In this document: positions 39,466-59,300 of the stretch, in pieces
Numbering within the stretch: position 1 is the stretch's first letter
How the letters are laid out: every line of letters starts with the position of its first letter
Source: Octopus vulgaris
Taxonomy: Eukaryota
NCBI GenBank assembly: GCA_951406725.2
Contig: OX597817.1
Span: forward strand, 128,464,001 to 128,528,000
Direction: 5' to 3'
DNA: 64,000 nucleotides
Notes under the pieces: generated by a model
What the model was told of the DNA's origin: nothing
Database searches by the model: none
What the model saw: the letters and a program-made list of their open reading frames with translations, nothing else
Translations under genes and position numbers: made by a program

Positions 39466-39893
39466 GGCGGCGAGCTGGCAGGTACGTTAGCACGCTGGGC
39501 GAAATGCATAGCCGTATTTCGTCTGCCGCTACGTACTGAGTTCAAATTCCACCGAGGTCGACTTTGCCTTTCATCCTTTCGGGGTCGATAAATTAAGTAC
39601 CAGTTACACACTGGGGTCGATGTAATCGACTTAATACATTTGTCTGTCCTTGTTTGTCCCCTCTGTGTTTAGCCCCTTGTGGGTAGTAAAAAAAATAGGT
39701 ATTTCGTCTGCCACTACGTTCTGAGTTCAAATTCTGCCGAGGTCGACTTTGTCTTTCATCCTTTCGGGGTCGATTAAATAAGTACCAGTTACGCACTGTG
39801 GTCGATATAATCGACTTAATCCGTTTGTCTGTCCTTGTTTGTCCCCTCTGTGTTTAGCCCCTTGTGAGTAGTAAAGAAATAGGTATTTCGTTT
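39466..39893 (+). mobile_element. SINE family A with a 184-bp internal tandem duplication
   Basis: Body restarts at GTATTTCGT at ~39699 and again at ~39883. Confidence 0.9.
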
Positions 39894-56398: not shown

Positions 56399-56626
56399 TT
56401 CTTTACTACCCACAAGGGGCTAAACACGGAGGGGACAAACAAGAACAGACGAACGGATTAAGTCGATTACATCGACCCCAGTGCGTAACTGGTACTTATT
56501 TAATCGACCCCGAAAGGATGAAAGGCAAAGTCGACCTCGGCGGAATTTGAACTCTGAACGTAGCGACAGACGAAATACGGCTACGCATTTCGCCCGGAGT
56601 GCTAACGTTTCTGCCAGCTCGCAGCC
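56396..56626 (-). mobile_element. SINE family A inside (CATA)n
   Basis: Near-consensus reverse copy. Confidence 0.9.
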
Positions 56627-57248: not shown

Positions 57249-57351
57249 TACGTATTTACGACAAGCACCGTGACTAAAGGCGTCCCACACTTCAGGAAAA
57301 TTTCTTTGCTTCCTGTTTGAACGACTCTATATTGTCAATAATTTCATTATC

Positions 57352-57799
57352 AGGGCGGCGAGCTGGCAGAAACGTTAGCACGCCGGGCGAAATGCTTAGC
57401 GGTGTTTCGTGTCTCTACGTTCTCAGTTCAAATTTCGCAGAGATCGACTTTGCCTTTCATCCTTTCGGGGTCGATAAATTAAGTACTAGTTACGTACTGG
57501 GGTCGATCTAATTGACCGACTCCCTCCTCAAAAATTTGGGGTCCTGTGCCAAGAGTTAGAAAATAATATTTTCATTATCAAGGCGCCAAGCAGTCAGAAA
57601 CGTTAGCACGCCGGGCGAAATTGCTATCGGTGTTTCATCTATCTTTGCGCTCAGAGTTCAAATTCCACTGAGGTCAACTTTACCTTTCATCCTTTCGGAG
57701 TCGATGAATTAAGTATCAGTTGCGTTCCTGGGTCGATCTAATCGACTGGCCCCTCCCCCAAAATTTCGGACCTTGTGCATAGAGTAGAAAAGAATATTT
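57352..57799 (+). mobile_element. two tandem SINE family A copies
   Basis: 57352-57571 and 57581-57799. Confidence 0.85.
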
Positions 57800-57934
57800 T
57801 CTTTATCTTTTAACTCATTTGTATGTGATCTGAGAAAGACATAATTTCTTTTTATAGCAAGTCGAATGACTGCATAGATACACAATCGTTGTTTCATATA
57901 CACACGTGTCTTAAGAGTATGTGCATAATATTGC

Positions 57935-57973
<39 letters not shown>

Positions 57974-58096
57974 TTCACAATCAAGGAACGGCCATAATAG
58001 GCCATTCACCCACTAGAAATAACAGCCAAAGCTTTAACCGCAAAATAACATTAATTCCGTAAACCAGGAGAAAATTAAAAAACATTTACCCTGTAA

Positions 58097-58201
58097 TTTC
58101 TTATACGATGCACCGTTTCATCTACAGTTTAATGGTAAACTAACCTGATTAAATTAAATCAAGCCAATCTTCCATAGGCCCTTAGATTCCTCAGTAAGAA
58201 A
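58097..58201 (-). ncRNA. type I hammerhead ribozyme
   Basis: Reverse complement of 58911-59015. Confidence 0.9.
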
Positions 58202-58585
58202 TAGCCAGAACGGAACAGATATTTTCACGAGGCATTTCCGTCCCTGCCTCGGCAATATCTGACCTAAAATTTTCAAATCATCGCACTCGCGCCAAATTTA
58301 TCGGCAGCAAATAAATATAAGCCGCCGATTCCATTACGGAATCAACCAGAAAATTCATAATTAATCAATATAGGGTGGCAAAAAAAATTTTGTAGAATTT
58401 TTTGCCACCAGCGGCCTAGTGGGAAAAAATTAAATAGTCATAGACCATTTATAAGTTCAACTTCACAATCAAGGAACGGCCATAATAGGCCATTCACCCA
58501 CTAGAAATAACAGCCAAAGCTTTAACCGCAAAATAACATTAATTCCGTAAACCAGGAGAAAATTAAAAAAACATTTACCCTGTAA

Positions 58586-58690
58586 TTTCTTATACGATGC
58601 ACCGTTTCATCTACAGTTTAATGGTAAACTAACCTGATTAAATTAAATCAAGCCAATCTTCCATAGGCCCTTAGATTCCTCAGTAAGAAA
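58586..58690 (-). ncRNA. type I hammerhead ribozyme
   Basis: Reverse complement of 58911-59015. Confidence 0.9.
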
Positions 58691-58910
58691 TAGCCAGAAC
58701 GGAACAGATATTTTCACGAGGCATTTTTGTTTGCCACCCTATATTGATTAATTATGAATTTTCTGGTTGATTCCGTAATGGAATCGGCGGCTTATATTTA
58801 TTTGCTGCCGATAAATTTGGCGCGAGTGCGATGATTTGAAAATTTTAGGTCAGATATTGCCGAGGCAGGGACGGAAATGCCTCGTGAAAATATCTGTTCC
58901 GTTCTGGCTA

Positions 58911-59015
58911 TTTCTTACTGAGGAATCTAAGGGCCTATGGAAGATTGGCTTGATTTAATTTAATCAGGTTAGTTTACCATTAAACTGTAGATGAAACGGT
59001 GCATCGTATAAGAAA
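58911..59015 (+). ncRNA. type I hammerhead ribozyme
   Basis: TTTCTTA-CTGAGGA-ATCTA..long hairpin..TAGAT-GAAA-CGGT-gc-ATCG-TA-TAAGAAA; 7-bp stem I; predicted cleavage after GUA at 59008. Confidence 0.9.
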
Positions 59016-59238
59016 TTACAGGGTAAATGTTTTTTTAATTTTCTCCTGGTTTACGGAATTAATGTTATTTTGCGGTTAAAGCTTTGGCTGTTATTTCTAG
59101 TGGGTGAATGGCCTATTATGGCCGTTCCTTGATTGTGAAGTTGAACTTATAAATGGTCTATGACTATTTAATTTTTTCCCACTAGGCCGCTGGTGGCAAA
59201 AAAATTCTACAAAATTTTTTTTGCCACCCTATATTGAT

Positions 59239-59300
<62 letters not shown>

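Follow-up and report, generated by a model that had tools for sequence, protein, structure and literature searches.

A head-to-head insertion of a predicted non-LTR retrozyme in the Octopus vulgaris genome and the paired 3' ends of its family

The window analysed here, a stretch of 64,000 nucleotides of the Octopus vulgaris genome, contains a short repeat in two opposed orientations, one copy of which begins and ends with the same sequence. The question that this locus raises is how such a block was made, and in particular whether its cDNAs were copied across the cleavage site of a self-cutting RNA from a circular or multimeric template, as a first-pass annotation had proposed. We propose that one insertion event gave rise to the whole block: a 490-nt non-LTR retrozyme with arms started at two different sites, A and B, likely by a borrowed Penelope-like reverse transcriptase (RT)/endonuclease acting on read-through RNA. 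We regard this reading as very likely.

The insertion and its ribozyme unit

The insertion is a head-to-head pair within a (TA)n repeat, made up of a minus-strand array of 1.54 units (57972/57973-58726) and a plus-strand copy of 1.04 turns (58730-59241), that is, one 490-nt turn plus 22 nt. The outer ends of both arms adjoin TA runs found with TRF, at 57939-57972 on the left (17 copies) and 59242-59296 on the right (27.5 copies). The array is 99.7% identical to the unit, with two homopolymer indels as the sole differences, and both arms share a haplotype. The identical 20-mers noticed earlier in the plus copy (58731-58750 and 59221-59240) are indeed present, and the repeat is exact over 22 nt (58730-58751 and 59220-59241), one 490-nt unit apart, which is not chance. 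A terminal overlap of this kind arises automatically in any tandem copy longer than one unit; the 20 bases probably mark just where copying stopped, and the 22-nt overlap is equivalent to the pseudo-LTR of Penelope, a by-product of an internal start and of copying beyond one unit. It is ordinary for the non-LTR retrozyme/Penelope-like class.

The unit has a GC content of 36.5% and contains neither an ATG open reading frame (ORF) of at least 40 aa nor the RT plus GIY-YIG ORF that is the mark of an autonomous Penelope-like element. What it does contain is the layout of a type I hammerhead, which on the plus strand of the right copy (58910-59016) runs through stem I (58910-58917/59009-59016), CUGAGGA (58918-58924), a long stem II, GAAA (58993-58996), a short stem III and GUA, with a predicted cut between 59008 and 59009. 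Two further complete copies lie on the minus strand of the left arm, at 58096-58202 (predicted cut between 58104 and 58103) and 58585-58691 (between 58593 and 58592), and, by the predicted cut positions, they flank a 489-nt monomer (58104-58592, minus strand) whose excision and circularisation would be possible. The assignment is based on an invariant core, compensatory pairs and fold energy. Across 619 unit pieces 11 positions of the core vary in only 0-0.3% of cases, in contrast to 60% at N7 and 15% at H17, which are free to change. Pairing in stems I, II and III stands at 98.5-99.6%, and compensatory double changes are seen in stem I (AT 312, GC 29) and stem II (AT 284, GC 46). The hammerhead fold (-28.0 kcal/mol) lies 1.4 kcal/mol above the minimum (-29.4 kcal/mol), and the unit as a whole folds much more strongly than its shuffles (z -6.0). 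A search of the window with Rfam at the gathering threshold gave no matches, probably owing to the long insert in stem II. Among the features by which non-LTR retrozymes are recognized, a hammerhead in each unit, tandem copies, a short, low-GC, non-coding unit and a dispersed family are found here, with tandem repetition evident both in the two hammerheads of the left arm and in arrays of up to 14 units at other loci. Judged from its sequence, the unit is a non-LTR retrozyme with a predicted self-cutting type I hammerhead.

With phases numbered from the predicted cut, the left array has its 3' end at phase about 133 and its 5' end at phase 357, and none of the four arm ends in the window falls at a predicted cut site, the latter as the first-pass annotation had stated. 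The left arm crosses the cut site twice and the right arm once. Where the two cDNA 5' ends meet head to head (58723-58730), the junction can be read in two ways. In one the left arm ends at 58726 and the right arm starts at 58730, with three extra bases; in the other the right arm extends from 58723 and a 4-nt A+T3 overlap, with one mismatch, is shared, so that the proposed junction in a shared T-run stands as one reading with a 3-nt insert as its alternative. Tandem copies of a different dispersed repeat of 185-230 nt, SINE-like by appearance, lie nearby at 57337-57807 and also at 56455-56626 (minus strand) and 39514-39891; ARAGORN found no tRNA between 56000 and 60500 of the window.

Two fixed 3' ends and the Penelope-like machinery

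A similarity search of the same genome with a query that required the whole unit gave 1394 candidates (about 1,400 candidate places), of which 40 were scored and all 40 retrieved. Exact junction counts across the genome were 808 for B and 275, in the forward direction, for A. A junction set free of this length bias (the C1 set) was drawn from 40 stretches around A junctions (39 on C1 and 1 on C2) and from 40 B junctions on C1, out of 41 there that were absent from the earlier set, and further stretches comprised 18 with long arrays and 7 with chosen variants.

The RNA-sense 3' end abuts a TA run in 206 of 227 segments, 67/76 in the similarity set and 139/151 in the C1 set, the latter having been selected for such an end. 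All 67 of these ends in the similarity set fall at one of two sites, A (31) or B (36), as do 137 of the 139 in the C1 set, where one end per locus was selected for. Site A is at phase about 130 and site B at about 237 after the predicted cut, about 105 nt apart. Head-to-head pairs consist of one A and one B end in 30/31 cases in the similarity set, 59/65 in the C1 set and 15/18 in a third count, a total of 104/114, and not one of the 114 clusters pairs A with A or B with B. The remaining 10 have one end elsewhere, or one that is unreadable or in a gap, and single arms also occur in the similarity and C1 sets, with 20 B ends and 7 A ends; these odd pairs and the A-only arms count against the proposed reading. 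The window insertion is an ordinary A+B pair, its minus arm ending at A and its plus arm at B (phase about 233-237). The B arm reads through the position of site A (59138-59141), which has a conserved hairpin just upstream (59108-59125, 99.8% of cells paired), and a strong hairpin lies between the two sites (59192-59228, outer six pairs 98.6% paired). The scattered phases that the first-pass annotation had predicted are hence not seen, the 3' ends being confined to A and B. Fixed, shared ends, of which there are two at the 3' side, are literally what it had named as evidence against its reading, but by our analysis they are explained by internal priming as in Penelope-like elements.

The comparison with Penelope-like elements extends to the whole insertion, which has an inverted 5'-truncated copy, partial tandems, 3' ends differing by a tail and a (TA)n target. 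Machinery of this kind is encoded in the same genome. An ORF beside one of the loci examined (L123) is the end of a Penelope-like protein, and the family to which it belongs has open frames of 1312 aa, although Pfam assigned the fragment to no family. The 1312-aa protein carries what we take to be YVDD, CxxxxCxxC and GIY-YIG-like end motifs, the naming also following Craig et al. This autonomous family is very young (L229-L246, e.g., G000:C5:115838500-115848000, with about 10,700 candidate matches). Its insertions sit in (TA)n and stop at either of two ends, one short and one long, separated by about 56 nt. All 11 of the inverted pairs examined, which were selected by ORF position, combine a short with a long end, one of the long ends being 12 nt shorter. 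An intact Penelope-like element in the Octopus genome obeys the same unlike-end rule as the A+B pairs of the retrozyme. The family proves that such machinery is active in this genome, but not that it is the driver of the retrozyme, and in the one autonomous family examined nothing resembles the unit in sequence (best E 2.0), a point against the proposed reading. By eye, the retrozyme (window 59108-59141) and the end region of one member of the family (L229) look alike in having, about 10 nt ahead of the short end, UUCC preceded by a small hairpin.

Could the unit then be a mere truncated end, a pseudo-LTR stub, of an autonomous Penelope-like element, with no self-propagating family of its own? 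Its architecture matches Penelope-like insertions as described by Craig et al. (2021; PMC8557442), but the stub leaves unaccounted for a full 490-nt unit that is repeated head-to-tail up to 14 times with no ORF. Among 13 loci with unusual flanks that were checked for ORFs, none runs from the unit into a coding region in the sense direction, and only one (L042) joins the unit directly to Penelope-like sequence. We consider this origin very improbable. The one exception (L042:1060-5908) is a chimera of an autonomous-element arm, an inverted piece of 3' UTR and a retrozyme arm of 6.95 units with no TA run between them, and the direct join may have come about by template switching or through a deletion that accompanied a later insertion.

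A second alternative dispenses with reverse transcription across the cut altogether and derives the block from one inserted monomer by local DNA duplication and fold-back. The 5' ends of the two arms do lie within 25 nt of the same phase in 28 of 84 pairs where 8.7 are expected, as a fold-back might give, and DNA-level change is visible in long arrays. Such a process nevertheless leaves unexplained the two different fixed outer ends of 104/114 pairs, the TA runs on both sides, arms that are unequal in either direction and the same rule in the autonomous element, and it seems to us highly improbable. Internal priming at A and B by a Penelope-like enzyme remains our preferred reading, and the templates can be considered on that basis.

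Templates and the ends of copying

Arm lengths and 5' ends were analysed for 136 of the 151 C1-set segments, excluding those with no TA-abutting A or B end or touching the edge of a stretch. The cut is crossed by 75 of the 136 arms. Of 272 crossings examined, 271 are free of indels over the nearest 4 nt. Since these cDNAs cross the cut, their templates were multimeric or circular, as the first-pass annotation had concluded, and it is certain that some were read-through. Template jumping at the cut was considered and is unsupported, given an indel nearby in 1 of 272 crossings and no junction scars. Of the pattern expected from a circular template, one part is present, in that 39 of 136 arms are longer than one unit, and the other is not, in that the phases are fixed at A and B.

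Where copying stopped carries further information. At phases 1-30 there are 34/136 5'-end stops where exposure predicts 9.7 (p 8e-11). Immediately past the cut the count is not raised (10 versus 8.5 expected), and other, equally AT-rich zones likewise show no excess. The stop rate in this zone is 29/104 on first passage and 5/47 on later passages (p 0.02). With 5' ends accumulating immediately inside the predicted cut, many of the copied templates would have been cut, linear RNA, and the stop pattern fits what a mixed population of cut linear and read-through RNAs would give. A U-run overlaps phases 1-30, with 17 of the 34 stops at 22-29, so part of the excess may represent pausing at the U-run or alignment to a homopolymer, which weakens this element of the proposed reading. 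Stalling near one full turn was examined as a signature of circles. Stops in the B zone number 9/37 among B arms and 6/47 among A arms (p 0.25), arms of 1.00-1.10 units number 4/136, and an apparent excess among the first 40 loci came partly from the use of a whole-unit query. As the one-turn stop is not significant, the overlap in the window is not in itself evidence for a circle.

We suggest that a borrowed Penelope-like RT/endonuclease would nick both strands of the TA repeat and prime two cDNAs inside the read-through RNA, which was multimeric and sometimes probably circular. One nick would prime at B and the other at A, as the genomic pairs suggest, perhaps with each half of an enzyme dimer serving one of them. 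Both cDNAs would run toward the 5' side of the RNA until they fell off or reached a ribozyme-cut end, and the two cDNA ends would be joined through short overlaps or inserts; 84 head-to-head junctions comprise 46 overlaps, 7 blunt joins and 31 inserts. In the window the B cDNA would have run 1.04 turns and the A cDNA 1.54 turns.

Whether the multi-unit templates were closed circles or linear multimers is a narrower question. The stronger form of the earlier proposal, which is a sub-case of our own, is that for the window insertion and most multi-unit insertions the reverse transcriptase started at A and B and ran in rolling-circle fashion around a covalently closed circle, a monomer or sometimes a dimer; we place it slightly below an even chance. 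It draws on a haplotype analysis of 54 multi-copy loci, from which four loci with two insertions or broken alignments were left out along with homopolymer and end positions. Divergence is 0.5% within insertions, including between arms, compared with 3.5% between loci; 33 distinct haplotypes are fixed across all units, and 38 of the 54 loci have only single-copy differences. The window variant 468T is present in all three covering copies, on both arms, and matches at two other loci only, one of them of a different haplotype, and two variants occur in all six copies at L048 in a pattern found nowhere else. At L170 (4592-7041) two unit types follow one another in alternation through the inversion, which is what a dimer circle would give, and the marker of one type, which breaks stem III, is absent elsewhere in the assembly. 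Circles of such elements have been reported from coral, mussel and axolotl (main text of PMC7229834).

Several observations oppose circles, namely that full-turn stops show no excess, that the minor allele is present in at least two copies at 16/54 loci (11/20 of those with six or more copies), and that the long arrays L181-L183 are mosaics that resemble satellites under unequal exchange, typical of DNA-level exchange and an alternative route by which a monomer could be multiplied. A monomer circle in particular is incompatible with the arms of L048 and L051, which share unit-specific variants in register, and is opposed by two linked variants that distinguish the arms of L194. A source array with such a variant in one unit, sought for daughter-fixed variants among the 155G and 131A loci, was not found, which also counts against circles; 155G turned out to be a small sub-lineage plus one recurrent change, and the 131A loci proved to be short insertions. 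Variants recur with period 3 or period 5, or form mosaics, in arrays of 7-14 units at L127, L181, L182, L183 and L197, that of L182 being 10.00 units between two TA runs.

The competing account has no circle, only partly uncut multimeric transcripts of existing arrays, with growth by DNA-level duplication, and we weigh it equally, at just under an even chance. It must contend with the fact that ordered sets of minor variants are never common to two loci, barring a recurrent pair at 179-180, and that private variants fixed over 3-6 copies would need multi-unit sources that have vanished. Some templates were clearly mixed multimers, and the chance that circles were among the templates is about even; they are favoured by the homogeneity within insertions, the private fixed variants and the one array with a dimer period. 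A fuller scheme, which we hold tentatively as possible but less than probable, is that an asymmetric Penelope-like dimer uses both strands of the TA repeat to start cDNA on a ribozyme-made circle, monomeric or dimeric, each strand at its own fixed site, and that both arms then roll around the circle until hammerhead re-cleavage ends synthesis. If it were true, more than a thousand places in the genome would record such a reaction, and in one array a ribozyme-damaging mutation would have set the dimer period.

Relation to known systems

Non-LTR retrozymes were defined by Cervera and de la Pena (2020; PMC7229834), who proposed circle-templated insertion by Penelope-like elements, and were linked to pseudo-LTRs by Li et al. 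(2026; 10.64898/2026.07.22.740005), who favoured local amplification by unequal crossover. As described in the main texts of both, metazoan non-LTR retrozymes share with the Octopus family a low-GC, non-coding tandem structure with one type I hammerhead per unit in dimers to multimers, and, as proposed in the former, mobilisation by Penelope-like elements via circles. The Octopus unit differs in its length (490 nt versus the 150-450 reported) and in being known here from DNA alone. Inverted arms, tails, and fixed paired ends do not appear in these two main texts.

Craig et al. (2021; PMC8557442) described for Penelope-like elements an inverted copy, a tail confined to one end and a bias toward (TA)n. 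The Octopus insertions resemble those of the endonuclease-bearing elements in that account in their partial tandems, head-to-head inverted copy, one-end extension and microsatellite target, and are unlike them in having no ORF and a tail of about 105 nt rather than 30-40. For the Poseidon element of the green anole, studied in vitro by Frangieh et al. (2024; PMC11167929), reverse transcription is reported to begin at two internal sites that lie downstream of the hammerhead, and nicking of an AT-rich target on both strands, a predicted dimer and the use of uncut RNA are reported as well. Two internal starts downstream of the hammerhead, an AT-rich target and the copying of uncut RNA are common to both systems. 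The strict one-of-each pairs of Octopus, however, contrast with the lack of any start-site difference between strands in vitro, the latter being a point against our reading, and 5' ends pile up at the cut in Octopus, a position at which that study saw no RNA ends.

In LINE-1 twin priming both target strands prime cDNA and an inverted 5' part is joined by microhomology. The Octopus insertions are similar in that both strands would prime and part of the copy is inverted, and different in that the second start is a fixed site and both arms often copy the same stretch, with B arms stopping within 25 nt of site A in only 10 of 84 pairs.

Within the literature searched by title and the start of the abstract, no paired fixed ends were reported for retrozymes, although supplements may show them, and neither strict unlike-end pairing nor the pile-up of 5' ends at the cut was found in the main texts of the literature searched. 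The value of the Octopus family rests on its family-wide pairing rule and its testability rather than on the 22-nt overlap, and it bears both on how Penelope-like elements build inverted-plus-tail insertions and on whether animal retrozymes move via circles. It offers a short, defined RNA of 490 nt, mapped start sites and an A+B rule common to an intact, young Penelope-like element, together with evidence from the genome that template ends are set by the hammerhead cut, and both questions could be tested with purified enzyme and linear versus circular RNA. The 1312-aa Penelope-like family (L229-L246) is a candidate for such in vitro work.

Older relatives of the unit, at 71-77% identity and ending close to the same two sites, A and B, are present at L160:2388-2542, L167:3038-3495 and L179:6334-6703. 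A second hammerhead-like motif (CUGAAGA ... GAAA ... GUC) occurs at L123:5010-5120, in an unrelated AT-rich repeat that ends at a TA run.
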